A stretch of DNA of 64,000 nt from Candidatus Eremiobacteria bacterium (GCA_963737065.1 CAVTRC010000001.1:1184001-1248000), one strand, 5' to 3'; positions 8,611 to 62,740 are shown, counted from the first letter of the stretch. Notes: generated from the sequence alone by a model not told the origin. A program made the numbers and translations.

Positions 8611-8615
8611 GCCTC

Positions 8616-30912: not shown

Positions 30913-30916
30913 GACA

Positions 30917-32875
30917 TTAACGCAAGTACGTATTGAACCAGCCCACCATACGCGAAATGATGTCACGCACGTGAGCCGGTTGGCGTACGCCGTGCCCTTC
31001 ATCAGCGTACACCACGAGCTGCGCCGGAACTCCGAGCGTCTGCATGGCATGATAGAACTCGAACGATTGGGCCGCGGGCACTTCTTCGTCGCGCTCGCCG
31101 GCGAGAATCAGCACCGGCGTCTTTGATTGTTTGATGTACGTTATTGGCGAACTTTTGGCATAGACGGCGGGATCGTCGTAGACCGACGCGCCGAAGAACG
31201 GAATCATCCACTGATCGATCTTGTTCTGCCCGTAGTAAGACTGCCAGTTGACGAGCCCCGCACCGGCGACGATCGCCTTGAAACGCGTCGTCTGCGTCTC
31301 ACCCCACATGGACATGTAGCCGCCGTAGCTCCATCCCGCCAACCCCAGACGATTGCCGTCGATCGGCGCAGCGGCAATCGCCGCGTCGACACCGGCGAGG
31401 TCATCGCGCCAATCGCCGCCACCGAAGTCCTTCACATTCGCTGCCGCAAACTCTTCACCACGCCCGAAACTCCCGCGCGGATTGGGTTCGAAGACGAAAT
31501 ATCCGTTCGCGGCTAACGGACTGACGAACAAACTCACGAACGACGGCAACGATTCCGCGGACGGACCGCCGTGAACGATCGTTACCATCGGATACGTACG
31601 GCCGGCGCGATAGTCTCGCGGATAGACGAGCCACCCTTGCACCTCGTACTGGTCGCTTTTCCACGTCAATGACACCGCGCGTCCGGTGAAGCGCGGAACG
31701 TGCGCGTTGACGTGTGTAATGCGCGCGAGAGCACGCGGCGCGCCGGCCCAAAGTTCCGGCGCGGTCGTGAACGACTGACGCACGACGGCGGCCACCGTGG
31801 CGGTCCTCGACACGCTGAGGTCCGCAAGATTTTCTCCAGCTCCGATGAGCGGATTCACCTTACCGGTTTGCGGATCCAGTGATGCGAGGACGCGCGATCC
31901 GTTGTAGTGCGCGAGCATCATGATTCGCCCATGCGCAACCCAGCGCAAGGACGACGCGCTGTACTCCATACCAGGCGTGATGTCGGTGGCGTTCTTCGAT
32001 GCGACGTCGACACGATAGACATCGCCTCCGACCGAACCGAAATCGCTCATGATGCCGCCAATCACGGCAATCGATTTCCCGTCGGGCGACCACGTCGGCG
32101 CATTGATCTGATACTTGGGCGTCAGCACGTCGTTCAACGTACCACCGGTCGATGCAACGCTTGCAAGTTTTGCGATCCACCAATTGTCGTCGCCGCTTCC
32201 GCGCGCATACGTCAACGCAAAACGTGATGCATCAGGCGACCATGCGTATTCATAGACATAATCGTTGGACGGCGAAACGAGGCGCACGGATCCGCTTCGT
32301 ACATCGATCGTTGCGAGCTGCTGCTCGTCATAGGAGGTGCCGATGACGCCGACGTCGCGCGCACCGGCGGCAAGCGCGCCGGACTTCCGATGCGGGTGCG
32401 CGATATACAAGAATGCGATCCGCGTACCGTCGGGAGCCCACGCGAGTTCTTGCGCGGCGCCGCTCAACGTTCCGACCTGCACTACGTGCGTGCCGTCGGC
32501 ATTCGAAAGATGAATCTGACCGTGGCCTTTTTTCCGGACGTCGGAGAGGAACGCGATCCGTTTCGAGTCGGGCGACCATGCGAGGTCGCCTTCATCCGCG
32601 TTCTTCTTCGCGAGATCGGCGCTTAGACGTACGCGCGCGTGCGTGGCGAGCGCCTCCACCCATACCGTCGGACGATGACGCACGGTCTGCTGCCACGCAA
32701 CGCGCGTTCCATCGGGTGAAACAACGACCGAATCGAACGTCACGACGCTTTGCATCGCATCATAGATTGCAGCGGCGTTGGGCGGCGCTGCACCGGCGGG
32801 CAAAAGCGAAGCGGCAACAATCAACGCGCAGCATACGGCGCCGTTAAAAAGGCGAAGCATGCTCGGTGATACCAT
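30917..32875 (-). CDS. S9 family peptidase (secreted)
   Basis: WSPD repeats, VHGGP, NPRGS, GWSYGG, DEEV and EGHG motifs. Confidence 0.92.
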   Translation of the reverse strand: MVSPSMLRLFNGAVCCALIVAASLLPAGAAPPNAAAIYDAMQSVVTFDSVVVSPDGTRVAWQQTVRHRPTVWVEALATHARVRLSADLAKKNADEGDLAWSPDSKRIAFLSDVRKKGHGQIHLSNADGTHVVQVGTLSGAAQELAWAPDGTRIAFLYIAHPHRKSGALAAGARDVGVIGTSYDEQQLATIDVRSGSVRLVSPSNDYVYEYAWSPDASRFALTYARGSGDDNWWIAKLASVASTGGTLNDVLTPKYQINAPTWSPDGKSIAVIGGIMSDFGSVGGDVYRVDVASKNATDITPGMEYSASSLRWVAHGRIMMLAHYNGSRVLASLDPQTGKVNPLIGAGENLADLSVSRTATVAAVVRQSFTTAPELWAGAPRALARITHVNAHVPRFTGRAVSLTWKSDQYEVQGWLVYPRDYRAGRTYPMVTIVHGGPSAESLPSFVSLFVSPLAANGYFVFEPNPRGSFGRGEEFAAANVKDFGGGDWRDDLAGVDAAIAAAPIDGNRLGLAGWSYGGYMSMWGETQTTRFKAIVAGAGLVNWQSYYGQNKIDQWMIPFFGASVYDDPAVYAKSSPITYIKQSKTPVLILAGERDEEVPAAQSFEFYHAMQTLGVPAQLVVYADEGHGVRQPAHVRDIISRMVGWFNTYLR

Positions 32876-32888
32876 GTCGGAGGCGCGT

Positions 32889-34517
32889 TCACCCGCGCTT
32901 TCGCAACGTTGCAATCGCGGTGCGGAATACCCACAGCACGGCGACAACGACGCCGATCCACAAGATCCAGCCCACCGCCATTTGCCATCCTTGAGGGTGG
33001 TAAAACGCGAGCAGAATCGTGACGCCGACGATGCATGCGGCGGCGATGAGCGTCGCATTCACCCGTTCGGCGATGGTTTCAAAGCGCTGGAGCATAGGTT
33101 CGAGTTCTTCGATGCGGGTCCAGACGCGCAGATTGCCGCGCTCGATGTCCGCGAGCACACGATCGGCACGCCGCGGCAATTCCATGCTGAGCTCGGCCGT
33201 TTCCATCGCGGCGAGCTTCGCGCGCTCGCCCCACTCGCGAGGATCGAATCTGGCGACCGAGACGTTCGCCGCGACGGGCTCGAGAAAATCGCCGAGCCGC
33301 TTCTCGGGAGCAATCGCGAGAATAAGCCCTTCTCCCATCGCGGCAGCTTTGAAAAATAGCGACAGCGCAGCCGGCATACGCAAATGGTGCTCTCGGATGA
33401 TATCGAGGATCTCGCTCAGCGCCGCACCGAATTCGACTCGCTCTACCTCTGTGTTCAAATACCGTTGCAGTAAACGTTGAAGTTCGGTCGCGAGCTCTAC
33501 GCGATCGATCGGACCGGTGGGCGGGGCGAGATCGACGAGCCGATCCGTCAGACGCTGCCCGTCCTGCCGGTGCACGGCGAGAAAGAAATCGGCCAGCTTT
33601 CGGCGCTGGTCTTCGGAGAGCCGGCCGATCATGCCGAAATCGATGATGCCGAGCGCACCGTTCGGGCGAAAAAAAATATTACCGGCGTGCGGATCGGCAT
33701 GGAACACGCCGTGAATGAATGCCGGCTCCATGATGAACCGCGCGATGCGCTCGGCGATGGCGGCTCGCAGTTTTGCCGAGAGCAACGGCGCTTCGTTTAC
33801 CTTCGTCCCATCAACGTACGTCAGCGTCAGGACATGCGCCGTTGAGTACTCGTCGACGACATCGGGCAGCGCAAAGCGAGGTTCCTGTTCGAAGATCTTA
33901 CGAAAGAGCGCAACATTGCGCGCTTCGCGCGTGTAGTCGAGCTCCGCGCGTAACATGTCTCCAAACTCTTCAACGAGCGCGTCTACGTCGTATCCCGCGA
34001 CTTCGGGAAACCATTTCGTCGCCGACGCTGCGAGTTTGCGCAAAATGTCCAAGTCGTATTCGACGATCGCTCGTACGCCAGGCTTTCGAATTTTTAGCAC
34101 GACGTCGCGGCCGTCGGTTAATTGCGCCCGATGGACCTGCCCGATGGACGCGCACGCAATCGGCTCGAGATCGAACGTTGTGAAAAGCAACGCCGGCGGC
34201 GCTCCCAGTTCGTTGACGATCTCTCCAATGATAACGTCGGGATCAAGGGGTGGTACGGAGTCTTGCAGCTTCGCAAGCTCATCGCGATACTCTCGTGGGA
34301 GCAGATCGCCACGCGTCGAGAGCATCTGACCGAGTTTGATGAACGTCGGCCCGAGCTCTTCGCACGCTTCGCGCAATTGGGAGGCAACTTGCGCAGCGCT
34401 TTCACCGTTCGCGTGGAAACGTAAGCCGGCGCCCGCGGCCGCGAAACCGTGCTTGGCAAGTACGGCAAGGATTTCTCGATACCGCTGCGAGCGGGTCGGC
34501 GGTGACTCGGTATGCAT
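32889..34517 (-). CDS. AarF/ABC1/UbiB atypical kinase family protein
   Basis: LGPTFIKLGQMLSTR, ACASIGQVH, FHADPHAGN and DFGM motifs, with a C-terminal TM pair. Confidence 0.93.
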   Translation of the reverse strand: MHTESPPTRSQRYREILAVLAKHGFAAAGAGLRFHANGESAAQVASQLREACEELGPTFIKLGQMLSTRGDLLPREYRDELAKLQDSVPPLDPDVIIGEIVNELGAPPALLFTTFDLEPIACASIGQVHRAQLTDGRDVVLKIRKPGVRAIVEYDLDILRKLAASATKWFPEVAGYDVDALVEEFGDMLRAELDYTREARNVALFRKIFEQEPRFALPDVVDEYSTAHVLTLTYVDGTKVNEAPLLSAKLRAAIAERIARFIMEPAFIHGVFHADPHAGNIFFRPNGALGIIDFGMIGRLSEDQRRKLADFFLAVHRQDGQRLTDRLVDLAPPTGPIDRVELATELQRLLQRYLNTEVERVEFGAALSEILDIIREHHLRMPAALSLFFKAAAMGEGLILAIAPEKRLGDFLEPVAANVSVARFDPREWGERAKLAAMETAELSMELPRRADRVLADIERGNLRVWTRIEELEPMLQRFETIAERVNATLIAAACIVGVTILLAFYHPQGWQMAVGWILWIGVVVAVLWVFRTAIATLRKRG

Positions 34518-46785: not shown

Positions 46786-47603
46786 TCGCGCCGCCGACGC
46801 TTGCAGGTGTTTGGTCAGCGACCGTTACGCCGGTCGATGCGTCGTTCGAACCCGATGCGGCGCGTGCCGCGGCCTTTTATCAAGAACTGCTCGCCAACGG
46901 CATCGACGGGCTGAACGTTCTCGGAACCAACGGCGAAGCGATGTCGCTCAGCACGCGTCAGCGCATCGCATTCATGCGTGGAATCGTTGAGGCCGGGATT
47001 CCGAAACCCCAAACGATGTTCGGCACGGGCGCCTGCGCGCTCGATGATGCGGTGGAACTCAATCGCGCCGCGGCGGACCTCGGAGTAGCAGCCGCGCTGA
47101 TTATTCCGCCGTTCTACTATCGCGACACGAGCAACGACGGTATCGTGCGCTTCTTCGACGCACTCTTCACGCGCGCGAGCCCGCCGCCGGTTCTCCTGTA
47201 TAATTTCCCGCGCATGAGCGGTATCACGTTCACCGCGTCGCTCGTCGACCGCTTGTTGAATGAATTCCCGGGCAAGATCGTCGGCATGAAGGACAGCTCG
47301 AACGACGCGACGTTACAGCGTGAGCTACTGCTGCGCCATCCCGAATTGCGCGTATTCACCGGTTCGGAAGAGACGCTTGCCGACGTGTTGAGCTTCGGCG
47401 GCGCGGGTTGCATTTCGGGAAGCGTTGCACTATGGCCGCGCCTCGCCGGCGATTTCTACCGCACGCGCGATGCGAAATTCGGCAAAGAGCTTGCGGAAGC
47501 ACGCCGCTCCGTCGACGGCGGCTCGTTGATCGCAACGGTGCGCGAACGCATCGCCCGCGCGCGCGCCGACGACAACTGGCGCCGCGCCGTTCCGCCGCTT
47601 TAG
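46782..47603 (+). CDS. Dihydrodipicolinate synthase family lyase
   Basis: LGTNGE, PPFYY, LYNFP and GMKDSS motifs. Confidence 0.9.
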   Translation: MIAPPTLAGVWSATVTPVDASFEPDAARAAAFYQELLANGIDGLNVLGTNGEAMSLSTRQRIAFMRGIVEAGIPKPQTMFGTGACALDDAVELNRAAADLGVAAALIIPPFYYRDTSNDGIVRFFDALFTRASPPPVLLYNFPRMSGITFTASLVDRLLNEFPGKIVGMKDSSNDATLQRELLLRHPELRVFTGSEETLADVLSFGGAGCISGSVALWPRLAGDFYRTRDAKFGKELAEARRSVDGGSLIATVRERIARARADDNWRRAVPPL

Positions 47604-49591
47604 ACCGTGCGCGCTTTCCGCCCGATCCAACGATACAACGCAAACGGGACCAAGACGAATGCGATGACGGCGAGCGGCGTGGCGAGCGCAAAGTTTGCGG
47701 CAAGTAGCGCGAACGGTTGCGACGGATCCGCGACGGAGATCGCACCGCGCTGGGCGGCAACGATGATTCCGGCATAGAGCACGCCCCAGATGCTTTCACC
47801 AACGATCAACCCCGACGCTACGAGCACGCCCAGGCGGCGCGCTGCGTCGGCATTGTTTTTGTTGCGAGTCCAATTGTTGTAGATCGCGCCGAAGAGCGCG
47901 CCGACGACAACGGGCGCCGTCGCCTGCGGCGGAAGATAAATGCCCAAGCCCACGGCGAGCGGCGGAAAGCGAAAGCGTCCCGACATGCGGCCGAGCTCAT
48001 CGATCACGATGACGGCGATGCCGATCAACACACCGATGCCGATGAGGTTCCACGGGGTCGTCGCGCCGATCACGCCTTTCGCGAGCGTCGAAATGAGCAC
48101 CGCTTGCGGCGCGGCCAATCCGTTTCCACCGAATCCGTATGCCTTGTTCAAGACGTCGAGTATGGGCGGGATAATGATCGCACCGAACAACACGCCGACG
48201 ATCAACGCGACTTGTTGCCGCCACGGCGTCGCACCGACCAGCTGACCCGTCTTCAGATCCTGAAGATTGTCATTTGAGATCGTGGCGACGTTGATCAAAA
48301 TCGTCGTGATGAACAACGCGTACGCTACCAACGCGGGGGTCGTGACGGGGTCGGCTTTTGCGACGAGCAGCAGCAAGAGCGCCGCACCGATGACCGAGAG
48401 AATCGCCATGCCGGAAACGGGCGAGTTCGACGATCCGATCAGTCCGGCCATATACCCCGTCGCCGCCGCGACGAACAATCCGACGATTACGACGTAGACC
48501 ATGCCGACGACGATCAGCGGCACAGCCATCGATTGCAACGGTGTGCCCGAGAGAAACACGTACAACAGGATCCCGAGCGGAACAAAGCACGCGAGCGCGA
48601 TCAAAAGAACGACGTTGAAGGGAAGATCGTGCTCGGTGATGTCGAGCGTCGCGCCCGCCTTGCGTGCTCGCGATGCGGCGACCGAGGACATAACGCCTTT
48701 CCACACCGGCGCCGCCAACCGCAGCAACGTCCAAATGCCGGCAATGCCGATCGTGCCGGCGCCGATAAAACGCACGTCGTGCGCGCGGATCGCATTTGCG
48801 ATATCGGCGATCGCGCCCGCCTGCGGATGCAACGCCGAAAACAGTGGAATCAAAATACCCCACGCGATAAAGAGGCCGCCAAAGATCGCGCTACCGACGC
48901 TCAGCCCGATGAGGTGACCGACCCCCACGAGCGCGAGCGAGGTCGAAAATCCCAAACCGGTAATCGATGGACCGACCTTCGCGAAGCCGTCGAACTCGCT
49001 CGCAAAGAGTCGAATCGCCGTACCGACCTGCACTGCGGCTGACGCGATCGAACTCACGATGAGCGCGATCAGCCCCAAGCGATTCTCGGCTGCGGCTTCG
49101 TCCTTTTGTTTACCGGCGCCGACGTGTAAAACTTCCGCCGCAGCGACCCCTTCCGGATACGGAAGATCCGAACCGGTCACGAGCGCGCGGCGCAACGGCA
49201 CGCTGTACATCACGCCGAGAATTCCGCCGAACGCACAGACCGCGAAAGACTGCCAGAACGGAAAGTGCGTCCACCAACTCACCATGACGAGTCCGGGCAA
49301 GACGAAGATGACCGAGGACAGCGTGCCCGCGGCCGAAGCAACGGTCTGCACGATGTTGTTCTCCCAGATCGTCGCGCTGCGGAATCCGCGTAAGACCGCC
49401 ATAGAAATCACCGCCGCCGGAATCGACGACGCGAACGTCAACCCGACCTTGAGGCCGAGATAAACGTTAGCAGCGGTAAAGACGAGCGTAATCAGGCCAC
49501 CGAGAAGCAGCCCGCGAATCGTTAACTCGAGTGCGCCCGCGGGACGGGAAACCGGCTCGATGACACCAGCCGGGCTTTCCGGTTGTGTGAG
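47600..49591 (-). CDS. OPT family oligopeptide transporter
   Basis: NVYLGLKVGLTFASSIPAAV, YPEGVAAA, SNSPVSG and QDLKTGQLVGATP motifs. Start approximate. Confidence 0.93.
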   Translation of the reverse strand, partial: LTQPESPAGVIEPVSRPAGALELTIRGLLLGGLITLVFTAANVYLGLKVGLTFASSIPAAVISMAVLRGFRSATIWENNIVQTVASAAGTLSSVIFVLPGLVMVSWWTHFPFWQSFAVCAFGGILGVMYSVPLRRALVTGSDLPYPEGVAAAEVLHVGAGKQKDEAAAENRLGLIALIVSSIASAAVQVGTAIRLFASEFDGFAKVGPSITGLGFSTSLALVGVGHLIGLSVGSAIFGGLFIAWGILIPLFSALHPQAGAIADIANAIRAHDVRFIGAGTIGIAGIWTLLRLAAPVWKGVMSSVAASRARKAGATLDITEHDLPFNVVLLIALACFVPLGILLYVFLSGTPLQSMAVPLIVVGMVYVVIVGLFVAAATGYMAGLIGSSNSPVSGMAILSVIGAALLLLLVAKADPVTTPALVAYALFITTILINVATISNDNLQDLKTGQLVGATPWRQQVALIVGVLFGAIIIPPILDVLNKAYGFGGNGLAAPQAVLISTLAKGVIGATTPWNLIGIGVLIGIAVIVIDELGRMSGRFRFPPLAVGLGIYLPPQATAPVVVGALFGAIYNNWTRNKNNADAARRLGVLVASGLIVGESIWGVLYAGIIVAAQRGAISVADPSQPFALLAANFALATPLAVIAFVLVPFALYRWIGRKARTV

Positions 49592-49639
49592 TTGCACCCG
49601 CCTTCGATTGTCGGCGCTGCGCAAGGACCCTTTCGTCGA

Positions 49640-50070: not shown

Positions 50071-52635
50071 ATGTCCGCCCTGATCGGCCGCGAACGGGAA
50101 ATTGCGACCGCTCTTGGCGCGCTCAAGATCGCCCAATCGACGCCGGTGGCGCGCTGCATCGCCATCGAAGGGCCGCCCGGAATTGGAAAGACCGCGCTGT
50201 TGACCACGATCCGCGAGCAATCGGGCTCGTGGCTTCAATTCGGCACGTCAGCGCATCGGATCCAGCAGACGCTGGCCTTCGGAGTCGTTCGGCGGCTCCT
50301 CGCGGCGCTGTCGGAAGCGCTCGGAGATGAATCCGCCCGCTATACGACCGGACTTGGTGAACTTGACGGCAGTGCAACCGATGGCGGCACGACGCTTTTA
50401 CGTCTGCTCGAGGGCGTAACACTAGATCACCCGGTGCTCATCGCCTTAGATGACGCGCAATGGATCGACGAAGAAAGTGCGACCGCGCTCAACGCGATTT
50501 TGCTCAGTCTCGCTGATCGTCCGCTCGCGCTCCTGACGACCGAACGGATCGATCCGTCGGAACCGCTTTCGCTGCTTGACGCAGCAGTACGCATCAGCCT
50601 CGGTCCCCTCGATCGTCGCGCGGCTATGGGTGCTGCGCGCGCTGAATTTCCGGAGGCACCCGTAGACGTCATCGATGCAATCGTGGCGCACTCCGGCGGA
50701 CATCCGATAGATCTCGTCACCCTCGCTCAATCGGCGCGCGATCGCGCAGCCCGCACTGGGAGTGACGTTGCCGAAAGTTTGAGATCGGTCACGGTTCGCA
50801 ACATCCAATCGCTTCCGGCGCAGCTGCGGGAATTTCTTCAAATCATGTCGCTGCTGAACGAGCCGATCGACTATAACTTGTTGCGCCGAATCTGGCTCGA
50901 CGAAAACCATCTCGTCAATCTCATCACCGCGAGTTCAGAACGCTTTTTAGTACAGGAAAGCACGCACTTGCGGTTCGCACATACCATGCTCGCCGATGCC
51001 GTACTCGAGACGATTCCTGTTACCATTCCAATGCGCCGGCGCATCATCGCTGCACTGCGGAGCGTCTCGAATCCCACGCTGGAAGACCGCTTGCAGATAG
51101 CGGAGCAAGCGCAAGCGTGCGGCGATCGCGACCTTGCGATTACGACCTTAGCCGCGCTTGCGAGCGAAGCGATCGAACGTGGGCAGGTGCGCTTGACGAT
51201 CAGCGTCTCCGAGCAGATGCTGAAAATCGGTGAGCCGCCTGACGACCGGTTCGTACCGTTCTATTCCGGCTACGGCCGCGCGCTACAGTTCATCGATCGC
51301 CTCGATCGCGCGAACGAAGTATTTCAACACGCGTTAGATGAAGCGACGCGGCGGAAATTGCCCGGCGTCGCTGCGCTTGCGGCGCAACTTGTCCTCGCGC
51401 AATGGTTCAACGACGAAAACGAGCGCGCCGTAAAGAACTACGAACGATTTTCAAACCAATTCACCGCGCCGTTCGATCGCGCTGCGCTTCACGCGGCGGG
51501 AATGTGGTTCGCGGCCTGCGACGCCGATATCGCGCGCTTCGAGAAAATCGACGCGGAGTTGACAGCCCTCGACGTTCCACTTCCGCCTGAACTAGCGTTG
51601 CGCCGTCACATCGTTCGCGCGTACATGATGATGCGCGCGGGCAATTTCGTCGAGTCGCGCGCCGCTATATCGCGCGTGGAAGACACCGCGTCGAGCGTTC
51701 CGGACGCGTTGCGGAACTTGGGGCAATTTGCGCGCACGTTCGTCGAACTCTGCTTGCTCGGCGTGCACGAGGCGAATGTCGGCGCGCTGCGAACGCGGCT
51801 GCGCGACGATGAAAACGGTTCGTGGCTCGACTACCTCTATGCGTGGACCGAATTGTTCGCGGGCCGGTATCACGATGCACTGGTCGTCGTCGAAAACGCT
51901 TTACAGCGCTATAGCGATCCCATTCACCGGCGCCGGATGCTGACTCTCGCTGCTGCGCTGAGCGTCATGCAAGACGAACCGAGTTCGTTTTTGTCCTCGA
52001 TCGAGAGCGACGTATCGCGCTTACTCACAGGTGAGCGCGGTGTGTGGTTCATGCCGCTCGCATCGTGGGCGTCACTCCTGCCGCGGACGTCCGAATCGCG
52101 CGCTCGGGTGCTCTCACGGATCGTTCTCACACATCTCTCGAAGCCCAGCGATCCACTCGTTATTACGCTCGCGACGCCAATTGCACTTAGCGCGCGTAAA
52201 CGCGGCGACACGGAGCTGCTCGAAGCACTCGCTCAACCCGAAGGGCTGTGGGATGATAAACGACCGCTCATCGCCGCCGAACTCGCGCTCGCGCGTGCGC
52301 TCGCGCGCGAGGGACTGGGGCGCGCTCCCGCACGCGATGTGGACGACGCATGCGACGAGTGCCGCAATCTTGGGCTGTCGGCAATCGTCGAGCTCGTTTC
52401 GCGCTCGGCGCAAAAGACAAGCGCGCTGAAAGCGGAGGCGAAATCTCCGCTTACGGCTCGCGAACGGCAGATCGCAAGGCTCGTTGCGCAAGGTATGTCG
52501 AACCGCGAGATCGCCGAGCAGCTTGTGTTGAGCGAACGCACCGTTGAAGGCCACATCGCCAACATTTTCAGCAAACTCAACCTCTCGTCGCGCACCCAAA
52601 TTGCGGCTTGGGTGTTGCGCGCTACGACTGCATAG
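50071..52635 (+). CDS. Large ATP-binding LuxR-family (LAL/MalT-like) regulator
   Basis: LIGRERE, Walker A GPPGIGKT, Walker B LDDAQWID and a C-terminal LTARERQIARLVAQGMSNREIA HTH. Confidence 0.93.
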   Translation: MSALIGREREIATALGALKIAQSTPVARCIAIEGPPGIGKTALLTTIREQSGSWLQFGTSAHRIQQTLAFGVVRRLLAALSEALGDESARYTTGLGELDGSATDGGTTLLRLLEGVTLDHPVLIALDDAQWIDEESATALNAILLSLADRPLALLTTERIDPSEPLSLLDAAVRISLGPLDRRAAMGAARAEFPEAPVDVIDAIVAHSGGHPIDLVTLAQSARDRAARTGSDVAESLRSVTVRNIQSLPAQLREFLQIMSLLNEPIDYNLLRRIWLDENHLVNLITASSERFLVQESTHLRFAHTMLADAVLETIPVTIPMRRRIIAALRSVSNPTLEDRLQIAEQAQACGDRDLAITTLAALASEAIERGQVRLTISVSEQMLKIGEPPDDRFVPFYSGYGRALQFIDRLDRANEVFQHALDEATRRKLPGVAALAAQLVLAQWFNDENERAVKNYERFSNQFTAPFDRAALHAAGMWFAACDADIARFEKIDAELTALDVPLPPELALRRHIVRAYMMMRAGNFVESRAAISRVEDTASSVPDALRNLGQFARTFVELCLLGVHEANVGALRTRLRDDENGSWLDYLYAWTELFAGRYHDALVVVENALQRYSDPIHRRRMLTLAAALSVMQDEPSSFLSSIESDVSRLLTGERGVWFMPLASWASLLPRTSESRARVLSRIVLTHLSKPSDPLVITLATPIALSARKRGDTELLEALAQPEGLWDDKRPLIAAELALARALAREGLGRAPARDVDDACDECRNLGLSAIVELVSRSAQKTSALKAEAKSPLTARERQIARLVAQGMSNREIAEQLVLSERTVEGHIANIFSKLNLSSRTQIAAWVLRATTA

Positions 52636-52900
52636 TGTATGCGAACCCGACGGCGCGCGGCGCGTTCGCCTGTTCGCCAGTCAGTTTCGCATGCTCGTCC
52701 TGCAGATTCTCTTCCGCGTATTGACGCATCTGTTCCATGTCGGCGTCGCTCGGCGGCTGCGAGAGGCCAAGCGTTGTTTGAATCAATTCTTTGAGTGCAG
52801 CAGAATCGTTTTGTGCGGCTTGCCACTTCGCGAATGTACCGGGATCGCGGAGTGCGTGCATAAATCCGGCCGCGATTGCGGCGTGTTGGACCGTGGCCAT
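52622..52900 (-). CDS. Candidate RiPP precursor or substrate peptide (92 aa)
   Basis: GAGGA SD 4 nt before the ATG. Helical acidic leader with an ALRDPxxF motif and C-terminal PRAVGFAYTMQS. Last gene of the ycaO-methyltransferase string. Confidence 0.65.
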   Translation of the reverse strand: MATVQHAAIAAGFMHALRDPGTFAKWQAAQNDSAALKELIQTTLGLSQPPSDADMEQMRQYAEENLQDEHAKLTGEQANAPRAVGFAYTMQS

Positions 52901-52964
52901 AGTGTCCTCATAAGTGAAGGGGTGTTCGGGTCTCTGACACCTATCGGGGAATCGGTTCGGCGAG

Positions 52965-53819
52965 TTAGCGCGCTACGATGATTCGCATCGATTCGCGATA
53001 GAGAATCGTGCGGTCACCGGCCCACTCCGTGAGCCGTTCATATACGCGCATGCGCGCATCCTCTGGCAACGTACCAACGTAGTACAAAAGACCCATGCGG
53101 CGCCGGAGAATGTCGATTCCGACAGCACGTTGGACCGTAAAATCATCGATCCGAACGTCGGAGAAGCCGCAGTCATGGAGCATGCTTTCCAACGTTTGCG
53201 TGGCGAAGATACGCGGGTCGCCCGGGTTGACCGGCGCGTAATCCGGATAGATTTCACGCACCCACCCGCGTATGGACTGCAACAACTGCATTGTGATTTC
53301 CGATGGGAGAGGCGGACGCGGGACGACGAAAGCAAAAACTCCCCGTTGTCGCAACACGCGGCGCACTTGCTGCAACGCCGCGTTTACATCACGGATCAGC
53401 ATCACGACGAGATGAGACGCCACTGCATCGAACGCATCGTTCGTGAAAGGCATTGACTCGGCCGCAGCAACAACGAGATCGTCAACGTTCGCAGCTGGAA
53501 GTCGCCGCTGCGCGCGCGCGATCTCTCCCGGCGAAAGATCGATACCGCTCACGCGAATCGCCCGATGCCGCGCGATCAGTTGCTCGAGCAGTACGCCATC
53601 GCCGCAACCGATATCCAACACGCGACCCCGGGAGACATCCACGGCGTCGACGAGGCGACCGTAGCTCGTCCGTCCGCGTTCGTCAACGAAACCTTCGAGG
53701 ACGCGCTCAGTGACGGACCGGCGCTCATCGTGAAACGCGCGGTGGTACTCGTCGAAATACTCAGGACGCGGAGCTTTGCCGGAAAGCACCGCCCGCATAA
53801 CGTCGCTCTCGTTGCTCAT
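52965..53819 (-). CDS. Class I SAM-dependent methyltransferase
   Basis: VLDIGCGDG, GIDLS, MPFTNDAFDAV and RRVLRQRG motifs. Start uncertain (53819 or 53849). Confidence 0.9.
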   Translation of the reverse strand: MSNESDVMRAVLSGKAPRPEYFDEYHRAFHDERRSVTERVLEGFVDERGRTSYGRLVDAVDVSRGRVLDIGCGDGVLLEQLIARHRAIRVSGIDLSPGEIARAQRRLPAANVDDLVVAAAESMPFTNDAFDAVASHLVVMLIRDVNAALQQVRRVLRQRGVFAFVVPRPPLPSEITMQLLQSIRGWVREIYPDYAPVNPGDPRIFATQTLESMLHDCGFSDVRIDDFTVQRAVGIDILRRRMGLLYYVGTLPEDARMRVYERLTEWAGDRTILYRESMRIIVAR

Positions 53820-53934
53820 AGAAACGCAAACGGAAGATGCCTCATGCATCTCCCATTCACTGTTCGCGGGATATAGCCTTAGCGCGCGGCCGTCAAACGC
53901 GGGTGACACGGATACGGGTAAGGACGTTGCTGCT

Positions 53935-55887
53935 TTAGCGCAGCGCGAACGGATTAAGGAGCGCACGTGCGCGCGGTCCCAAGTGCCCCGTGAAGATCAC
54001 GTGTTCTAGGCGCGGAACGATCGTTCGCACAACGCTGATCGGCACGTCGGGTGGCGCCAGGTCCACCGCGACCGCGCTCGTGATGCCGTATTGTGAAAGC
54101 GACCGTAACGTCGCGCGAAGATCGTCCGCAAGATCGTCCGTCGTGCGGTCGGGGATCTGATCGAGCGCTTTGCGCGGCGTCGGCATGTCGAAGTACCAGG
54201 CGTCCCTCGGCAACGACTCGAGTCTTCGCGCATGCGAACCCGAGATTCCCGCGTCTTCGCCAACCCGCAAAATATCTTCCCGTGCAGCCTGAATGTCGAC
54301 GACACGGCTTTGCACGCACTCCGTAAGCGCGCGCGTGAGCGCATGTGCCGGCGATAGCGCGCAACCTAACCCGATATGCGCCATCGGCGGCGTCACGCCC
54401 GGCTCGCTTACGGTTGCAAGCACGGTCAAAGGCAATGGCCCTTCTTCAAGGGCGAGCGCGCGGACCGTCAGGCCGGCGTCATGAATATTTTGAACGAGTC
54501 CGTCGATCGAGGCAATGCCGGTGGGAAACGTGATCTCCGGTGCCAACGGCAAATCCTTCGCCGCCTCGCCCAAGAAGAAACGCGGCACAATCGAACATTT
54601 GACGTGGAACATGCACCAGATGTGGCGTTCGATCAGCTCGCACAGCGCGTGATAGATCGCTTCGGTTAGGTTATTCCCTGAAGCCAGTCCGTTGGTTGAC
54701 GTGATATCGAAAAGACGGTCGCCGAACCATGGACACTGCACCATCGCAACCGGGACGGGAATCGCGTCGCCCGAGATCAGTTCGGTTCCGAGCACGCAAT
54801 CGACGACGAGCTCGCGGGCATCCGAGCGTAAACCGGTCGCTTCGAGATCCATACGCTCGCCGACGATCCGCAAGGACTCGCGAAAGACCGGAAGGCGCAC
54901 GACCGATCCGATTTGACGTTCCGTCGCTTCCATCACCGCACTGGCAATGGCGGCATCAGAGGTCACGCCCTTACCGTTGTAGACGCCGAGTAAATCGACG
55001 GAATGCGGCACGAGCGCTGAGTACGTGGGAATGCCGGTCCGATCCAGATACGTGGTGTCGGCGACGCGCGTAATTCCATAACATTCGCGCAAGCGTGGCA
55101 ATACCGCGAGCGTCGCTTCAAACGGTACGGCGCGATCGTACGTGCCCGGCGCTTTGGGAACCGATTGCGGGAGCACGATCGGCGAGGTATCGATGGAGTC
55201 ATGCTGTGCGATGGCGCGCACCGTTGGTGACGCGGCGTGCGATCGCGGCGCGGCGGCGGTGCGCTCGATAAAGCGCAACACTGTGCGCATCGCAAAACGC
55301 GCATCCCAACGCTTGAGATCGCCATGCGCCCGCGCGATGGAGATGAACGCTTCCCGTGCATGCAGCGGGACGCATTCATAAACGTCCTCCCACGTACGGT
55401 CCATATAGAAGATTCGTCGCGCCCGGTCAATGAGTACATCGTGTTCCGCCCGCGTCATCGCAGCGCAGCGATATAACAAACGCGCGACATGCCGGACATT
55501 GACCATCGGGACGGTAAGCGACTCAAATGTTTCGGGATGCGTGAGCAGCGCCACTTCATCGTCGCCGTCGATCTTCTCAGCAACGTACCAGTTCGCGATC
55601 GCACCAAGCGGCGTGAAGCCGTACGGCGCGCACTCGGCCGCACGCAATGCACCCATGCTCGACGCACCAAACATTCGCGCGTGAAGCGTCGCTGCGTAGC
55701 ATTCCTTGGGCGAAGGCGCAAGATCGTGATGAAAGACGCCGTCGATCAGAAGAACCGCGTCGTATTCTTTTGCGGCCGCAAAGACATCGTTGCGCGACGC
55801 GGGCGGCAGATAGACTAATTCGTCGCGTCCGATTCGATCGCACGGCGGTAACGATGGGCCGCAAAAAACCGCGACGCGTTTCTCCAC
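53935..55887 (-). CDS. TfuA-YcaO fusion protein (putative peptide backbone thioamidation enzyme)
   Basis: N-terminal TfuA: VFCGPSL, LPPASRND, LIDGVF, PKE, GASSMGALRAAEC, DDEVAL, VPMVNVR. C-terminal YcaO: GITRVADTTYLDRTGIP, GKG, SAVMEATER, STNGLASGN, ELIERH, RALTECVQSR, VVRTIVPRLE. One uninterrupted frame. Confidence 0.93.
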   Translation of the reverse strand: MEKRVAVFCGPSLPPCDRIGRDELVYLPPASRNDVFAAAKEYDAVLLIDGVFHHDLAPSPKECYAATLHARMFGASSMGALRAAECAPYGFTPLGAIANWYVAEKIDGDDEVALLTHPETFESLTVPMVNVRHVARLLYRCAAMTRAEHDVLIDRARRIFYMDRTWEDVYECVPLHAREAFISIARAHGDLKRWDARFAMRTVLRFIERTAAAPRSHAASPTVRAIAQHDSIDTSPIVLPQSVPKAPGTYDRAVPFEATLAVLPRLRECYGITRVADTTYLDRTGIPTYSALVPHSVDLLGVYNGKGVTSDAAIASAVMEATERQIGSVVRLPVFRESLRIVGERMDLEATGLRSDARELVVDCVLGTELISGDAIPVPVAMVQCPWFGDRLFDITSTNGLASGNNLTEAIYHALCELIERHIWCMFHVKCSIVPRFFLGEAAKDLPLAPEITFPTGIASIDGLVQNIHDAGLTVRALALEEGPLPLTVLATVSEPGVTPPMAHIGLGCALSPAHALTRALTECVQSRVVDIQAAREDILRVGEDAGISGSHARRLESLPRDAWYFDMPTPRKALDQIPDRTTDDLADDLRATLRSLSQYGITSAVAVDLAPPDVPISVVRTIVPRLEHVIFTGHLGPRARALLNPFALR

Positions 55888-55890
55888 TAT

Positions 55891-55929
55891 AAAAAGACCC
55901 CCACCGATGTCATCTACACCGGCGGAGGT
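55891..55929 (-). terminator. Intrinsic terminator after the 55960..56253 gene
   Basis: Minus strand ACCTCCGCCGGTGT-agatg-ACATCGGTGGGGGT followed by CTTTTT. Confidence 0.75.
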
Positions 55930-56319: not shown

Positions 56320-56793
56320 TTACGCGCGATCTTCCCCGCCCGCGGATTCGTTCAAGACGCGTTCGATGGCAGCTTGGACGCGTTCGAATCCTTTGCCGCC
56401 TGCCTGAAAATGGCGTAGCTCATGCGCGCGATCGAACACGTAGAATGCGGGGACGAATTGATTTTCGAAACGATCGACGATCGTGTGCGCATTGTCGATC
56501 GCGACCGGCTGCGTCAGCTGCATGTGCTCGTTCGCATCTTTGGTCACCGCATCGACGTCGAGTTCGTCTTCGGATCGCGGCTGGTGCACCGCGACGAACG
56601 CAACGCCGCGATCGGCGAACGTGTCGCGCCACGCTGCGAATTGGCCGGCGGTGTCGTGGCACATAACGCAACTTTGCGACCAAAATGAAACGACGACCGG
56701 AAGTCCGCGCAGCTCTTCAGCTTTGGGCTCGCCGTTGACCCACGCGCTAACGCCCTCCAATGAAGGCAGAGTGCTTCGCATCCGCAGTGTCAT
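56320..56793 (-). CDS. TlpA-like redoxin
   Basis: FWSQSCVMC, VHQPR and FENQFVPAFYVFD motifs. Confidence 0.88.
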   Translation of the reverse strand: MTLRMRSTLPSLEGVSAWVNGEPKAEELRGLPVVVSFWSQSCVMCHDTAGQFAAWRDTFADRGVAFVAVHQPRSEDELDVDAVTKDANEHMQLTQPVAIDNAHTIVDRFENQFVPAFYVFDRAHELRHFQAGGKGFERVQAAIERVLNESAGGEDRA

Positions 56794-57348
56794 TTATGCC
56801 TTTTGGAGCAGCGCTTTGCCGGGCTTCCATTCGGCCGGGCACAGACCGCCGGTTTGCAGCGCCTGGAGCACCCGAAGCGTTTCATCGACGCTGCGGCCGA
56901 CGTTGTCGTCCGTCACGACGGCATATTTCAAATCGCCTTCCGGATCGATGATGAAGAGCCCGCGCTGCGCGACGCCGGTTTTTTCATCGAGCACGCCGTA
57001 CGCGCGCGCGGTTTCTTTCGTGAAGTCCGAAAGGAGCGGGAATTTCGTCCCCGCAATGCCGTTCTTTTCACGCGGCGTATTGAGCCACGCCCAGTGTGAG
57101 AACACGGAGTCGACGGACGCGCCGAGGATCTCGCAGTCGAATTCCTTGAACTCGTCGCAGCGATCCGATAACGCGGTAATTTCCGTCGGGCAGACGAACG
57201 TGAAGTCGAGCGGATAGAAGAAAAAGACCAACCATTTGCCGCGATAGTCGGTGAGCTTGACCTCTTTGCCGAGGTCTCTTGCTCCGGTCGCGTCTTTCGT
57301 GCTCGCGAGGTTGAAATCGGGTGCCGGTTTACCGACTTGCGCCAACAT
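56794..57348 (-). CDS. ahpC: 2-Cys peroxiredoxin (AhpC/TSA)
   Basis: FYPLDFTFVCPTE, RGLFIIDP, VGRSVDETLR and CPAEW motifs. Confidence 0.95.
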   Translation of the reverse strand: MLAQVGKPAPDFNLASTKDATGARDLGKEVKLTDYRGKWLVFFFYPLDFTFVCPTEITALSDRCDEFKEFDCEILGASVDSVFSHWAWLNTPREKNGIAGTKFPLLSDFTKETARAYGVLDEKTGVAQRGLFIIDPEGDLKYAVVTDDNVGRSVDETLRVLQALQTGGLCPAEWKPGKALLQKA

Positions 57349-57483
57349 TGAGATTCGTTCCACTTTCTACATCGGGAAGTAACGAGCTGCGGCCGCATGA
57401 ACCGGCCCGCACTCGAAGTTTGCGAATCCGAATGTACGCAAATCCGGGCGTCCGCGAAAATGACTTTCAGCGCAGACCCGCAA

Positions 57484-57561: not shown

Positions 57562-57954
57562 ATGGAACCGCCAAAAACTCTCCTCGAAGCTGTTCGCATG
57601 TTCTCCGATCCGAACGAAGCGCATCGGTACTTCGCCTCAATCCGCTGGGCTCACGCCGTGGCCTGCCCCCGGATCGGGTACGGATCAGCCGATGTTCGGG
57701 AGATTCGCGGAAGGCGGCCTCGATGGTTCTGCCGCGACTGTAAGCGGCAGCTCACAGCCAAGGTCGGCACGATTTTTCAGGATAGCTCCATCGGCTTCGA
57801 TAAGTGGCTCCGGGCCGTATGGCTCCTTACCGCCTGCCGCAACGGCGTGTCGTCCTATGAAGTCCACCGTGATCTTGGTGTGACCCAGAAGACAGCTGGT
57901 TTATGCTTCACCGTATCCGTCACGCGCTTAGTAGTAAGACGTTCGAAAAGCTAA
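57562..57954 (+). pseudogene. IS1595-family transposase, N-terminal remnant
   Basis: Zn ribbon RW...CP...CRDCKRQ, GTIFQDS and GVSSYEVHRDLGVTQKTA, then a frameshift. No DDE domain. Confidence 0.85.
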
Positions 57955-58138
57955 ACCGACTGTAGACACTCGCGGATGGAGGCCGGTTGATACACCGCCC
58001 GCTGGCATCGTCCCATCCTGGGACCTTCCGCCGCCCAGCGCGACACCGTGAACGAACGCGGTTCGCGCGACTCTACGATCAGCCTACCGCTCCCATTTCC
58101 GGCTTTCTAAGGTCGAGCGGCGCGAGGCGTCTAGTATA

Positions 58139-58162
58139 TTATGTCGCGTACTGGCGACATTA
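58139..58162. other. Palindromic recombinase-type site (copy 2, inverted)
   Basis: TTATGTCG-cgtactg-GCGACATTA. Confidence 0.55.
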
Positions 58163-58238
58163 CTGATTTGACGCAAACGGGGCGACCAGACCTTAAGCTA
58201 GCTCACGGTTGCTGTTTCGTGGTATTGCTCCTTTGATC

Positions 58239-58267
58239 TTGACCATAGCTTGGTACCATGGTACCAT
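58239..58267 (+). promoter_or_regulatory. Sigma70-type promoter with an overlapping palindromic operator for the TA pair
   Basis: TTGACC (58239-44), 17-bp spacer, TACCAT (58262-67). Perfect 16-bp palindrome TGGTACCATGGTACCA at 58251-58266. Confidence 0.7.
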
Positions 58268-58324
58268 ATCAGCATGGGCGACCGGGGGGTCACCTATCCT
58301 CAGTCCTCTAAACGGGAGACAACC

Positions 58325-58543
58325 ATGGCACTGAAACAGATCAATATTCGAGTCGATGAGGAAACGGCGGAGCAACTCAAGCTTCGCGCCACCATTGAAA
58401 AGCGGTCCGTCAACGAGATCGTTGGGGAATCTCTGCGCGAATATTCGAAGCGCCACCCCGTTTCGCGCAAAGACATGCTCGCTATGGTGCGGGCCATTGC
58501 GCGTGAGGATGAATCGTTATTGGAAGAGTTGAGAAAAGGCTAG
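58325..58543 (+). CDS. Ribbon-helix-helix (Arc-like) antitoxin
   Basis: KQINIRVDEE...LKLRA..EKRSVNEIV motif, GGGAGA SD, directly upstream of the Doc-like gene. Confidence 0.8.
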   Translation: MALKQINIRVDEETAEQLKLRATIEKRSVNEIVGESLREYSKRHPVSRKDMLAMVRAIAREDESLLEELRKG

Positions 58544-58544
58544 A

Positions 58545-58943
58545 TTGCAATATCTCACTGAAGACGACGTTCTTGCGATTTACAGAGAGGTCATCGGAGA
58601 ACCCGCATTGCGGTATCCCAGTGGCCTTTCTTCTGCAGTAGGACGCCCGCAGCAGTCGGCATTTGGTGAAGACGCATATCCGACGATTCAGCTAAAGGCT
58701 GCAGCCCTTATGCAGTCGCTTGCCGAGAATCAACCTTTCGTTGACGGCAATAAGCGCATTGCATGGATTTGCGGAAAGCTATTCTTGCAGATTCACGGAT
58801 ACACGATGCATGCGACGGATAAGGAGGGAGCAGAACTCTTTTTAGAACGCATCGCAAATGGCATGACAATTGAGGACTTGTCGGAGTGGATTAGTCGCCA
58901 TATTTCCGTGCTTATTACAGACGAAAACGCAGGACTGACTTAA
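58545..58943 (+). CDS. Doc/Fic family toxin with a variant active-site motif
   Basis: LSSAVGRPQQSAFGEDAYP..KAAAL and NQPFVDGNKR motifs. Confidence 0.88.
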   Translation: MQYLTEDDVLAIYREVIGEPALRYPSGLSSAVGRPQQSAFGEDAYPTIQLKAAALMQSLAENQPFVDGNKRIAWICGKLFLQIHGYTMHATDKEGAELFLERIANGMTIEDLSEWISRHISVLITDENAGLT

Positions 58944-59800
58944 AGTCTTTTTTTGTGCCATCCAGTGGTCATATCCGTTCGCTACAATTGAACCATGAAC
59001 GAGCCGACCACCCTCCTCGAAGCCGTTCGCATCTTTGCAGACCCGCAAGTCGCTCATGACTACTTCCTCGGCCTCCGCTTTCCAAACGGTATCGCCTGCC
59101 CTCGGCACGGATGCGGTTCGGCGGACGTAGCAAAGATTTCAAACCGTAACGCGTGGCGCTGCCGCGACTGCAATCGCCAATTTATGGCCAAAGTCGGCAC
59201 GATCTTTGAGGACTTTGAGGACAGTCCTATCGGCTTCGACAAGTGGCCCGCGGCTATGTGGATGTTGTCCTCATGCCGTAACGGTGTATCATCCTGCCAT
59301 CGCCCGGGCGATCGGCGTCTGTCAGAAGACGGCGTGGTTCATGCTGCACCGCTTGCGTCACGCTATGAAAACCAAGACCTTCGAGCGTCTTTCGGGCGAG
59401 ATTGAAGTAGACGAGACGTTCATCGGCCCGCGTGGTCGCTCGATGACTCGTCGCCATGTTCTCCCGCCATCGAAGAAAGGCGGACGCGGTCCGACGTTCG
59501 GAAAGACGACCGTCATGGGATTCCGCGAACGCGGCGGAGATGTTCGCGCGTTTGTCGTTAAAGACAATCGCCGGAACACGCTGCTTCCGAAAGTTTTCGA
59601 GAACGTAATGCCCGGCGCGACCGTCTACACCGATGTGCTCGGCTCTTATCACGGCCTACGCGAAGCGTTCGTTCACCAAGTCATCAATCATGCCGAGTCC
59701 TATGTTGACGGTCGCATTCATACGAACAGCATTGAAAACTTCTGGAGCGTGCTGTTGACGCCGGCTGAAAATTGACCCACTTTGCTATGGGATCGCCGGT

Positions 59801-61616
<1,816 letters not shown>

Positions 61617-61666
61617 CGCGAACTTACGTTCGCGTCAGATCAGGCGGAACGGCTTAGTCAACTCTG

Positions 61667-62740
61667 TTAGGCGGCGACTTCAATACTATTCTGACTATTG
61701 CGCGCAAGTCGGTCTTGCATCGGTTGCAACCGATAAAACACAACCGTTGCCAGCTGCCGTTTGTGAGAACGCATCGCAGCTCGATGCGTCTTGCCCTCAG
61801 CTCGCTTACGCGCATAATAGAGTTGGCCCGGATGATTGCGCGTGCGGTTTTGGACCAACGCAATAACATGGAGTAATCGATTGAGCTGACGATCACCACC
61901 GGTGTTGACACGGACGCTCGCGTTGCGACCGCTCGAACACGGAACGGGCGCCGCCCCGGCGCGCATCGCGAAGCTCGCGGCATTGCGATACATGCAAAGA
62001 TTGCCGGCATGTCCAATGATCCCGGCAGCAACGACAATGGAAACGCCTCGAAGCTCCAGCAATTCGGGCGCAAGGCGCTTAACGAAAGGGCGCAGTTGGC
62101 GTTCCAGCTGATTCACTGCAGCATTGAGCCGGCGGATTTCCGAGATCGCCTCGTCGACCTCATCAGCAAGCGCATCACCGGTATAGCTCTTACCGCGATG
62201 ACCCGTTAGAAGATCTGCTGCATTCTGCAATGCAATTTCGGTGGTCATGTTCGAGGGCAGCGGTCCAATCGCCAGCCGCAATGCGGCATCCCGCAGCCGA
62301 TTTACAGCCTCCGTCCGCTGTCGCACAAGTCGATCGCGGCGATCATAACGTAACCGGACTGCTTCCTGTTCATCCAGACGTTCGCAACGCCGCAAGCGAT
62401 CGGATTCGCGCAGAACTGCTTCGGCAATCGCTCGAGCGTCGAGTGGATCGGATTTTCCTCTTCGGCTTGCGTGTTTGCGGTGACGTTTAGTGAACGAACC
62501 TGGAACCTCGTATACGACGGCGTTGCTTTTCAGCAGAGCATCGGCGAAGCCACGTCCGAACGAACCACTTCCCTCAAGACCCCATTCAACGGTGCCAAAC
62601 GACCGTGCTCTTTCGATCGCAGTCGCATACCCTGCGGCGTTCGTTGCAATGGTGATCTCCGAGAGCGCTTTCCCAACTCCATCAACGAATACGATGGTGT
62701 GAGAATCCTTGTGACAATCGACGCCCGCAACGACGCGCAT
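61667..62740 (-). CDS. IS110 family transposase/recombinase (DEDD)
   Basis: GVDCHK, LEGSG, KSDPLDA, APVPCSSG and GDRQLNRLLH motifs, with an AAGGAG SD. Confidence 0.95.
   Translation of the reverse strand: MRVVAGVDCHKDSHTIVFVDGVGKALSEITIATNAAGYATAIERARSFGTVEWGLEGSGSFGRGFADALLKSNAVVYEVPGSFTKRHRKHASRRGKSDPLDARAIAEAVLRESDRLRRCERLDEQEAVRLRYDRRDRLVRQRTEAVNRLRDAALRLAIGPLPSNMTTEIALQNAADLLTGHRGKSYTGDALADEVDEAISEIRRLNAAVNQLERQLRPFVKRLAPELLELRGVSIVVAAGIIGHAGNLCMYRNAASFAMRAGAAPVPCSSGRNASVRVNTGGDRQLNRLLHVIALVQNRTRNHPGQLYYARKRAEGKTHRAAMRSHKRQLATVVFYRLQPMQDRLARNSQNSIEVAA

Follow-up and report, generated by a model that had tools for sequence, protein, structure and literature searches.

A candidate thioamide-forming peptide operon with a fused TfuA-YcaO enzyme and a new precursor family in the Eremiobacterota

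Gene clusters that pair a YcaO enzyme with a TfuA protein have been catalogued by the thousand; few have a known product, and to our knowledge almost none comes from an uncultured phylum. The system described here lies in a 64,000-nt stretch of DNA, referred to below as the window, from a Candidatus Eremiobacteria bacterium (GCA_963737065.1, CAVTRC010000001.1:1184001-1248000). It comprises a tfuA-ycaO fusion gene, a gene for a class I S-adenosylmethionine (SAM) methyltransferase and a gene for a 92-aa peptide, all on one strand, together with a gene for a large ATP-binding regulator of the LuxR type (LAL), a STAND protein, that converges on the peptide gene (Table 1). We consider it probable, if by no means certain, that the three co-oriented genes form an operon of the type that yields peptides made by the ribosome and modified after translation (RiPPs), which is vertically inherited, is accompanied by a convergent STAND/LAL regulator, and would thioamidate and methylate the core of the 92-aa precursor.

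Among solved structures and curated models, the nearest relatives of both halves of the fusion protein belong to the system that introduces thioglycine into McrA (structures 6pe3/6peu and 6xp8; models TIGR03266 and NF033432), and by analogy the same ATP-dependent exchange of oxygen for sulfur would be expected here. In the McrA system, however, the substrate is a large enzyme subunit and there is no dedicated small precursor, while the window offers no mcr context. The YcaO of Escherichia coli likewise thioamidates a backbone, that of ribosomal protein uL16, but it acts without TfuA and recognizes a folded ribosomal protein, unlike the system in the window (PMC13063428, excerpt). According to the same excerpt, TfuA is a hydrolase that works with thiocarboxylated carriers of the ThiS type and delivers sulfide equivalents.

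Among peptides, the thiovarsolins, made by the var cluster of Streptomyces varsoviensis, are N-acetylated A-P-R tripeptides that derive from a repeating core and are thioamidated between Pro and Arg; such repeating cores are described as their defining feature, and they are made without a cluster protease (PMC6511847, excerpt). Like var, the window combines TfuA and YcaO with a precursor whose core is capable of tandem repetition and with no cluster protease, and its core begins with APR, a likeness of three residues that may be due to chance. Unlike in the window, the var genes are separate and stand with those encoding a heme-oxygenase-like protein, an ATP-grasp ligase and an amidinotransferase; in the excerpt, neither a methyltransferase nor a LAL is described for var, which is actinobacterial and sporadic rather than phylum-wide. 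This comparison is one of cluster descriptions, and the var accessory enzymes were not seen here. In Burkholderia thailandensis, tfuA and ycaO also form a single gene, but one that is accompanied by two radical SAM proteins (PMC8120280, excerpt); no Eremiobacterota cluster is mentioned in the excerpted text of that article, the supplementary tables being outside the search. More broadly, a literature search that paired the names of the phylum with YcaO, TfuA or thioamide found no description of the present family, again with supplementary tables, which could list clusters anonymously, outside its scope.

Thioamitide clusters, of the thioviridamide type, carry a methyltransferase, and TfuA-YcaO thioamidation in a RiPP cluster with a methyltransferase is common to them and, presumptively, to the window. 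An earlier reading of this DNA, made from the sequence alone (the sequence-only reading), had noted that thioviridamide-type enzymes are missing from the vicinity. Pfam searches confirm this on a larger scale: enzymes for dehydration, decarboxylation and aminovinyl-methylcysteine (AviMeCys) formation were not found anywhere in the 64-kb window, nor were lanthipeptide enzymes or a decarboxylase found in the window or in 17 related loci. Because these accessory enzymes are absent, the cluster is not a thioamitide cluster; its precursor, with a long leader predicted to be folded, also differs in form from those of the thioamitides. The same reading had suggested that the locus might represent a distinct class. 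This stands as far as the precursor family is concerned, which is new, but not for the system as a whole, which fits every feature of a TfuA-associated YcaO RiPP system that can be checked in silico and has its place among these.

Precursors of the Nif11-like and nitrile-hydratase-like leader peptide (NHLP) types have long, probably folded leaders. Like theirs, the leader of the window precursor, at about 75 aa, exceeds the core in size and is probably folded, but unlike them the precursor has no Gly-Gly cleavage motif and no peptidase-transporter nearby. A kinship of the leaders was considered and rejected, since the Nif11 model PF07862 matched only one of 46 precursor members (E 0.0089) and the NCBIfam leader models matched none of the 46.

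In the 650-aa fusion protein, the Pfam TfuA domain occupies residues 49-165 (about nt 55393-55743; E 1.1e-27), and the YcaO domain, in which 325/325 profile positions are covered, residues 304-628 (about nt 54004-54978; E 2.9e-50). The top NCBIfam matches are to TIGR03266, the YcaO of McrA-glycine thioamidation (174 bits against a cut-off of 365), and to NF033432, the TfuA partner of the same system (130 bits against 235), while the model for S12-accessory YcaO proteins matches marginally (21.8 bits against 700). In the PDB, the two halves find MJ1094 (6pe3, E 3.6e-27) and TfuA (6xp8, E 1.6e-24) as their top matches. By these comparisons, the archaeal pair that makes thioglycine in McrA is the nearest relative of both. 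An ExxER motif occurs twice (E320/E323/R324 and E417/E420/R421); we take the two to be the ATP/Mg-binding motifs, and they align with MJ1094 and show no variation in 27 of 27 fused homologues. The homologues nearest to the fusion carry the names Candidatus Eremiobacteraeota, Aquilonibacter or Vulcanimicrobiaceae, and so do most of the related loci. One high-scoring segment pair spans both TfuA and YcaO in 32 of 68 loci examined (designated by L numbers below). The two genes are separate but adjacent in L038-L040 and lie 4.2 kb apart in L043, and throughout the YcaO clade of the window TfuA is either fused or adjacent to YcaO.

The identification of the 92-aa peptide as a precursor follows from its family. 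Homologues of 88-106 aa (profile E down to 1e-44) hold the same position in 49 species-level loci, and the open reading frame (ORF) is therefore a real gene. The leader extends from residue 1 to about residue 79 (nt 52664-52900) and the core, APRAVGFAYTMQS, from residue 80 to residue 92 (nt 52625-52663). AlphaFold2, run with a 46-sequence alignment, predicts five helices over residues 3-76, with a predicted local distance difference test score (pLDDT) of 75-88, followed by a disordered tail at residues 78-92 (pLDDT < 50; mean for the whole chain, 73.9). Among the 46 members, the leader has a mean pairwise identity of 0.48, the linker one of 0.22 and the core or tail one of 0.38. The core conforms to the motif A-P-[H/R/K]-x-V-G-x4-M-Q, in which fixed anchors (A in 32/46, P in 35/45, H/R/K in 35/46, V in 39/46, G in 39/46, M in 28/46 and Q in 36/46) surround four variable, mostly hydrophobic positions.

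The window precursor has a single APR-containing core, which includes Thr and Ser, but at least 12 relatives carry tandem cores, with 2-6 units behind one or two leaders (P0133, P0136, P0147, P0162, P0170, P0171, P0181, P0182, P0206, P0208, which is L037, P0213 and the second copy in L015). The unit ..HAVGxxFTVQD.. occurs five times in P0182, and P0147, P0171 and P0181 have four core copies each. In sister subfamilies the leader is kept and joined to other cores, of the [CI][FV]NG and VG..C types, and some cores have no Cys, Ser or Thr at all, such as the L007 tail APHHVGAMAMMQQD. Several core types behind a shared leader, along with expansion into cassettes, are what marks out a family of RiPP precursors. 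Many of the type I cores are rich in His and Met (the L007 tail, the L030 tail and the P0133 cores); the core of the window has one Met only and no His.

A search of 1.84 billion representative proteins with the precursor profile returned only 91 members at E <= 1e-3, 67 of them at E <= 1e-10, and apart from one apparent chimera, none of the 91 is fused to a larger domain. The 92-aa ORF has no match in Pfam or NCBIfam, its model found nothing in the PDB at E <= 0.001 with Foldseek (one match had an E of 9.6), and the ESM Atlas gave no usable match. On the evidence of these searches, the leader family is previously undescribed, being new to Pfam, NCBIfam and the PDB. What is new in the system, as judged from comparison of sequences, is this precursor family and the architecture in which it is embedded, which combines a fused enzyme and a methyltransferase with a long helical leader, cores in cassettes and a STAND partner whose gene overlaps.

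How closely is the peptide tied to the enzyme? The 68 loci came from one-genome-per-species contigs and were fetched with the alignment of the 27 fused homologues. The precursor profile detects 53 ORFs in 49 of them, and these include 49 of the 54 loci that make up the YcaO clade of the window (52 placed by the tree, plus L029 and L035 by identity). The tree of YcaO domains had 67 rows and was built by a quick search with Shimodaira-Hasegawa-like approximate likelihood-ratio support (SH-aLRT) and no bootstrap; L029, L035 and L067 were too short to enter. All 50 of 50 precursor-positive rows fall inside one 54-row clade with an SH-aLRT of 100, and none of the 13 rows outside it is positive. As for the 19 precursor-negative loci, in three (L005, L014 and L029) the contig breaks off within 500 bp of ycaO, and two (L055 and L060) belong to the same YcaO clade without a homologue that the profile could find. 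The other 14, of which 13 are tree rows, have distant YcaOs from Acidobacteriota, Myxococcota or a methanogen. The peptide therefore accompanies this tfuA-ycaO essentially always. In most loci, its gene comes directly after ycaO or after the methyltransferase gene, and it stays beside ycaO even in L028, L038-L040 and L044-L046, in which the flanking genes differ from those of the window and no methyltransferase homologue was found. Variant clusters have additional genes: a B12-radical SAM enzyme and a hydrolase in L043, a second YcaO in L037, and a GNAT protein directly before the precursor in L041 and L042.

Two side observations concern the composition of the locus set. Five loci (L003, L010, L012, L016 and L053) are titled Acidiferrales, Acidoferrum or Alphaproteobacteria, yet they are fully syntenic with Eremiobacterota loci and nest among Eremiobacterota in the YcaO tree; their bin labels are probably wrong. 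In the Acidobacteriaceae outgroup (L051, L052, L054, L056, L057 and L058), a conserved 105-aa ORF, with 64-78% identity among loci, lies directly upstream of ycaO (at about 9660-10065, with ycaO at 10001; 2722-3039 in L054), and in L056 it adjoins a Ser/Thr kinase with TPR repeats. This ORF possibly represents a second, unrelated family of long-leader precursors.

The methyltransferase is a more variable companion. The protein matches Methyltransf_11 in Pfam (E 8e-21) and contains the SAM motif VLDIGCGDG. Its start is most likely the ATG at 53819 and not the GTG at 53966, as the 284-aa form aligns end to end with a 287-aa orthologue in L020 (residue 3 to residue 4), and with this start there is no overlap with ycaO, from which the gene is separated by a 115-nt gap. 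The best PDB match is LahSB (6uak, E 4.5e-10), which esterifies the C-terminal carboxylate of lanthipeptides (PMC11285071, excerpt), but a generic methyltransferase follows at 4.5e-9; since generic enzymes score almost as well, a function of the LahSB type is only a lead. Homologues occur in 35 of the 49 loci that bear a precursor, so that the methyltransferase is a frequent accessory and not a constant partner. The sequence-only reading had made its case depend on the peptide and the methyltransferase occurring together with homologous tfuA-ycaO genes in other genomes, and this they do, each to the extent given above. In a tally over loci, the methyltransferase is found mostly with cores that keep the M-Q ending, an association that is confounded by phylogeny.

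The convergent gene encodes a protein with AAA_16 at residues 4-153 (E 9.2e-18) and a GerE/LuxR helix-turn-helix (HTH) domain at 793-847 (E 1.1e-20). By its domains it has the LAL architecture, namely an N-terminal P-loop NTPase, a C-terminal LuxR-type HTH and, at 854 aa, a length within about 850-1000 aa. A LAL homologue occurs in 44 of the 49 precursor-bearing loci, and its tail-to-tail arrangement with the precursor gene is conserved: of 45 precursor genes with a large ORF nearby on the opposite strand, 36 overlap it by 4-20 nt and 44 are within 20 nt of it. Across species (L001-L053), the overlaps fall into size classes of 4, 6, 14, 17 and 20 nt. As a consequence of the overlap, the last codons of the core are read on both strands, which may constrain the C-terminus of the core or couple the two transcripts through antisense effects.

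The partner in this position is not always a LAL. In the L038-L040 subfamily, which has [CI][FV]NG cores, a different STAND lineage takes the same convergent place: L038 (9029-11509) and L039 (12150-14639) have a protein with XRE-HTH, AAA and TPR domains, and L040 (12181-15108) has one with a nucleotide (adenylate/guanylate) cyclase, AAA and TPR domains. Over the NTPase-TPR body, the proteins of L038 and L040 share 53% identity, the N-terminal output domain being the only part in which they differ; in BLASTP, neither has similarity to the LAL of the window. In rearranged loci (L041, L042 and L047-L050), it is the STAND gene that the precursor remains beside, and ycaO lies 3-8 kb from the precursor; L041 has two precursors and two LALs. 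On the plain reading, the LAL would be a pathway-specific activator. In about half of the window-type loci, but not in the window, an extra gene with AAA_16/NB-ARC only (470 aa, no HTH; L007:16170-17582) stands between the LAL and OPT transporter genes.

How might the product be made? The helical leader of about 76 aa would serve as the recognition handle and the disordered core as the substrate, in which the YcaO domain would activate a backbone amide at the expense of ATP. The fused TfuA domain would supply the sulfide, the source of which would, by analogy, be a thiocarboxylate of the ThiS type with its gene elsewhere in the genome. Azoline formation cannot be the conserved reaction, since some cores have no Cys, Ser or Thr, and this, together with the TfuA domain, points to an ATP-dependent exchange of oxygen for sulfur. 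The resulting backbone thioamide would probably lie within or next to the A-P-[H/R/K]-x-V-G segment, where Val-Gly is a lead to the site because the relatives of the enzyme act at glycine, and the Ala-Pro-basic triplet a second one suggested by the thiovarsolins. The methyltransferase would then act on the same peptide, with the C-terminal carboxylate, the conserved Gln and the thioamide sulfur as candidate acceptors. The cluster encodes no protease, and the core would presumably be released by housekeeping peptidases, or possibly not be released at all. As far as sequence goes, then, the thioamide-RiPP interpretation advanced in the sequence-only reading is supported by the co-occurrence, the tandem cassettes and the combination of a helical leader with a disordered tail.

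Several points weigh against this interpretation. The family matches of both enzyme halves fall below the curated NCBIfam cut-offs for the McrA system, so that the function is assigned from the family and not from equivalog status. Fourteen of the 49 precursor-bearing loci lack the methyltransferase, and this enzyme is linked to its presumed substrate by adjacency only. The overlap with the stop region of the LAL gene may partly explain the conservation of the last core residues, and the locus set, having been drawn with just two patterns of YcaO sequence, is not exhaustive and not free of bias. A ThiS-like carrier (by Pfam, on ORFs of at least 70 aa), a protease tied to the cluster and an exporter are absent from the window, and a search for ORFs ending in Gly-Gly gave only one in the window, which is implausible as a ThiS-like carrier. 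The lack of a protease or dedicated exporter tied to the cluster, in the window and in 17 annotated loci, would also be accommodated by a module for protein modification or signalling, in which the 92-aa protein remains uncleaved and its modified tail acts as an intracellular ligand or partner of the convergent STAND NTPase. The fact that in the rearranged loci the precursor is bound less tightly to ycaO than to its STAND partner, the paired precursors and LALs of L041, the constant NTPase-TPR body with its varying outputs (LuxR HTH, XRE HTH and nucleotide cyclase) and the housekeeping-like synteny of the cluster across the phylum all speak for such a module. We nevertheless hold it to be unlikely, given that tandem core cassettes typify precursors from which several peptides are cut, and that ordinary pathway-specific regulation explains the adjacency of the LAL equally well; nor is the missing protease peculiar, the thiovarsolins likewise being made without one (PMC6511847, excerpt).

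It is also conceivable that YcaO carries out some other chemistry, such as azoline or amidine formation, and that a thioamide is not the end product. The Thr and Ser of the window core, the Cys-containing cores of sister subfamilies (for example, the [CI][FV]NG and VG..C types) and a weak match of the fusion to the SagD-type model TIGR03604 (85 bits against a cut-off of 219) could be taken in this sense. However, Pfam finds neither a cyclodehydratase partner (E1-like/ThiF-like) nor an azoline dehydrogenase in the window or in 17 related loci, TfuA accompanies YcaO throughout the clade, and the closest solved and curated relatives form thioamides; together with the cores that have no Cys, Ser or Thr altogether, this makes a different end product very unlikely. 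That TfuA-YcaO instead modifies a housekeeping protein, like McrA in methanogens or uL16 in E. coli, with the 92-aa ORF as an unrelated neighbour or accessory factor, would agree with the McrA system as the best family match, with the established action of YcaO on whole proteins (PMC13063428, excerpt) and with the conservation of the locus throughout the phylum in synteny with AhpC, OPT, proline dehydrogenase (ProDH) and DHDPS genes. Against this, the precursor family occurs only with this YcaO clade and beside ycaO despite differing flanks, and its product has a disordered tail that forms cassettes. Neither is the product a ThiS-like carrier, since it is all-helical and has no Gly-Gly end. 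A housekeeping target is thus extremely improbable.

Why would a peptide of this kind be kept across the phylum? The cluster is conserved across about 50 species of the uncultured Eremiobacterota, and this breadth points to a physiological role, as signal, cofactor or metal ligand, rather than to a strain-level antibiotic. The conserved overlap with the gene of a STAND sensor, the output domain of which changes from lineage to lineage, provides a concrete hypothesis as to the purpose of the peptide. It could be the cognate signal of the overlapping NTPase, in a phylum-wide module of RiPP and receptor with one sensor body and different outputs, a proposal that we put forward tentatively and think rather doubtful. 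In that case the peptide may be taken up again via the OPT transporter or SBP_bac_5 binding proteins, and the system would be a thioamide-based counterpart, of Gram-negative type, of quorum sensing by peptides and TPR receptors. His/Met-rich cores combined with thioamide sulfur would be soft-metal ligands, and a bold reading is that they form a metallophore of the copper type. With a single fused enzyme, a single methyltransferase and a single precursor whose core motif is clear, the system is defined and testable, and the three genes are small enough for direct expression in a laboratory host.

The coordinates of the cluster and its associated features are collected in Table 1. The sequence-only reading had drawn the four ORFs, the tail-to-tail overlap and a Shine-Dalgarno sequence before the 92-aa ORF, and had named the TfuA, YcaO, SAM methyltransferase and LAL domains; the ORF listing, direct reading of the sequence and Pfam hidden Markov model searches agree with it in all of these. 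Its statement that no exporter is adjacent holds as such, but a transporter gene, that for OPT, adjoins the LAL gene just outside the limits that it had considered.

Table 1. Positions of the genes and sequence features of the cluster, counted from the first nucleotide of the window
Feature	Position	Strand	Remarks
tfuA-ycaO fusion gene	53935..55887	-	650 aa, GTG start (ORF listing, Pfam)
Class I SAM methyltransferase gene	52965..53819	-	most likely 284 aa from ATG 53819; longest ORF 333 aa, 52965-53966, from GTG 53966
Precursor peptide gene	52622..52900	-	92 aa, ATG at 52900, stop codon 52622-52624
LAL-type (STAND) regulator gene	50071..52635	+	854 aa, convergent with precursor gene
Precursor/LAL tail-to-tail overlap	52622..52635		14 nt; last four codons and stop of precursor opposite last LAL codons
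Shine-Dalgarno-like GAGGA	52905..52909	-	4 nt before precursor ATG (direct sequence reading)
Hairpin, 15 pairs	53826..53860	-	within the 115-nt gap from ycaO to the probable methyltransferase start
GC-rich hairpin, then T run	55897..55929	-	just upstream of tfuA-ycaO start (pattern match only)
OPT-family oligopeptide transporter gene	47600..49624	-	divergent from LAL gene across a 446-nt gap; Pfam OPT 1e-95

The hairpin just upstream of tfuA-ycaO is likely to terminate transcription of the small gene before it, and the three-gene unit may begin at this point. Scans for promoters and terminators did not exceed shuffled expectation in this region (3 promoters against 2.2 expected; 6 terminators against 10.0), and because terminator-like sites are not enriched, the hairpin between ycaO and the methyltransferase gene is weak evidence. 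Rfam gave no matches over the whole window.

Upstream, the cluster is flanked by a small secreted Ser/Thr/Pro-rich ORF, a thioredoxin (Trx)-like gene (56320-56793) and AhpC (56794-57363), and on the other side by the OPT transporter gene, followed by DHDPS-family and proline dehydrogenase genes. A 244-aa ORF at 56483-57217 on the plus strand was rejected as a gene, as it is the antisense shadow of the minus-strand AhpC and Trx-like genes, which accounts for its apparent conservation in tblastn. The OPT transporter is possibly associated with the cluster. In 23 of the 49 loci that have a precursor, an OPT gene lies no more than 10 kb away, but linkage does not decide its membership, since OPT travels with ProDH and DHDPS and plain synteny explains its presence equally well. 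Peptide-binding proteins of the SBP_bac_5 family adjoin the LAL in L041 and L042 and, in L048, lie close to the methyltransferase and ycaO; together with OPT they give a hint of peptide uptake.

The window is rich in peptidases: it has a beta-propeller fragment of the S9 type, a tandem pair of S10 carboxypeptidases and a tandem pair of genes of the S9 prolyl-oligopeptidase family (1-1515, 7090-10166 and 28501-33058). An S9 gene is present in L038 too, about 2.3 kb upstream of tfuA. The core might be released by a housekeeping prolyl peptidase, a candidate suggested by the conserved Pro at the core start rather than by any linkage. Beyond AhpC lies a patch of mobile elements (57562-62740), which consists of IS1595 pieces (57562-57954 and 59206-59775), an RHH and Fic/DOC pair (58250-58943), the istA/istB genes of an IS21 element (59801-61616) and an IS110 transposase (61667-62740), and which has a GC content of 0.55-0.58, compared to about 0.60 elsewhere.

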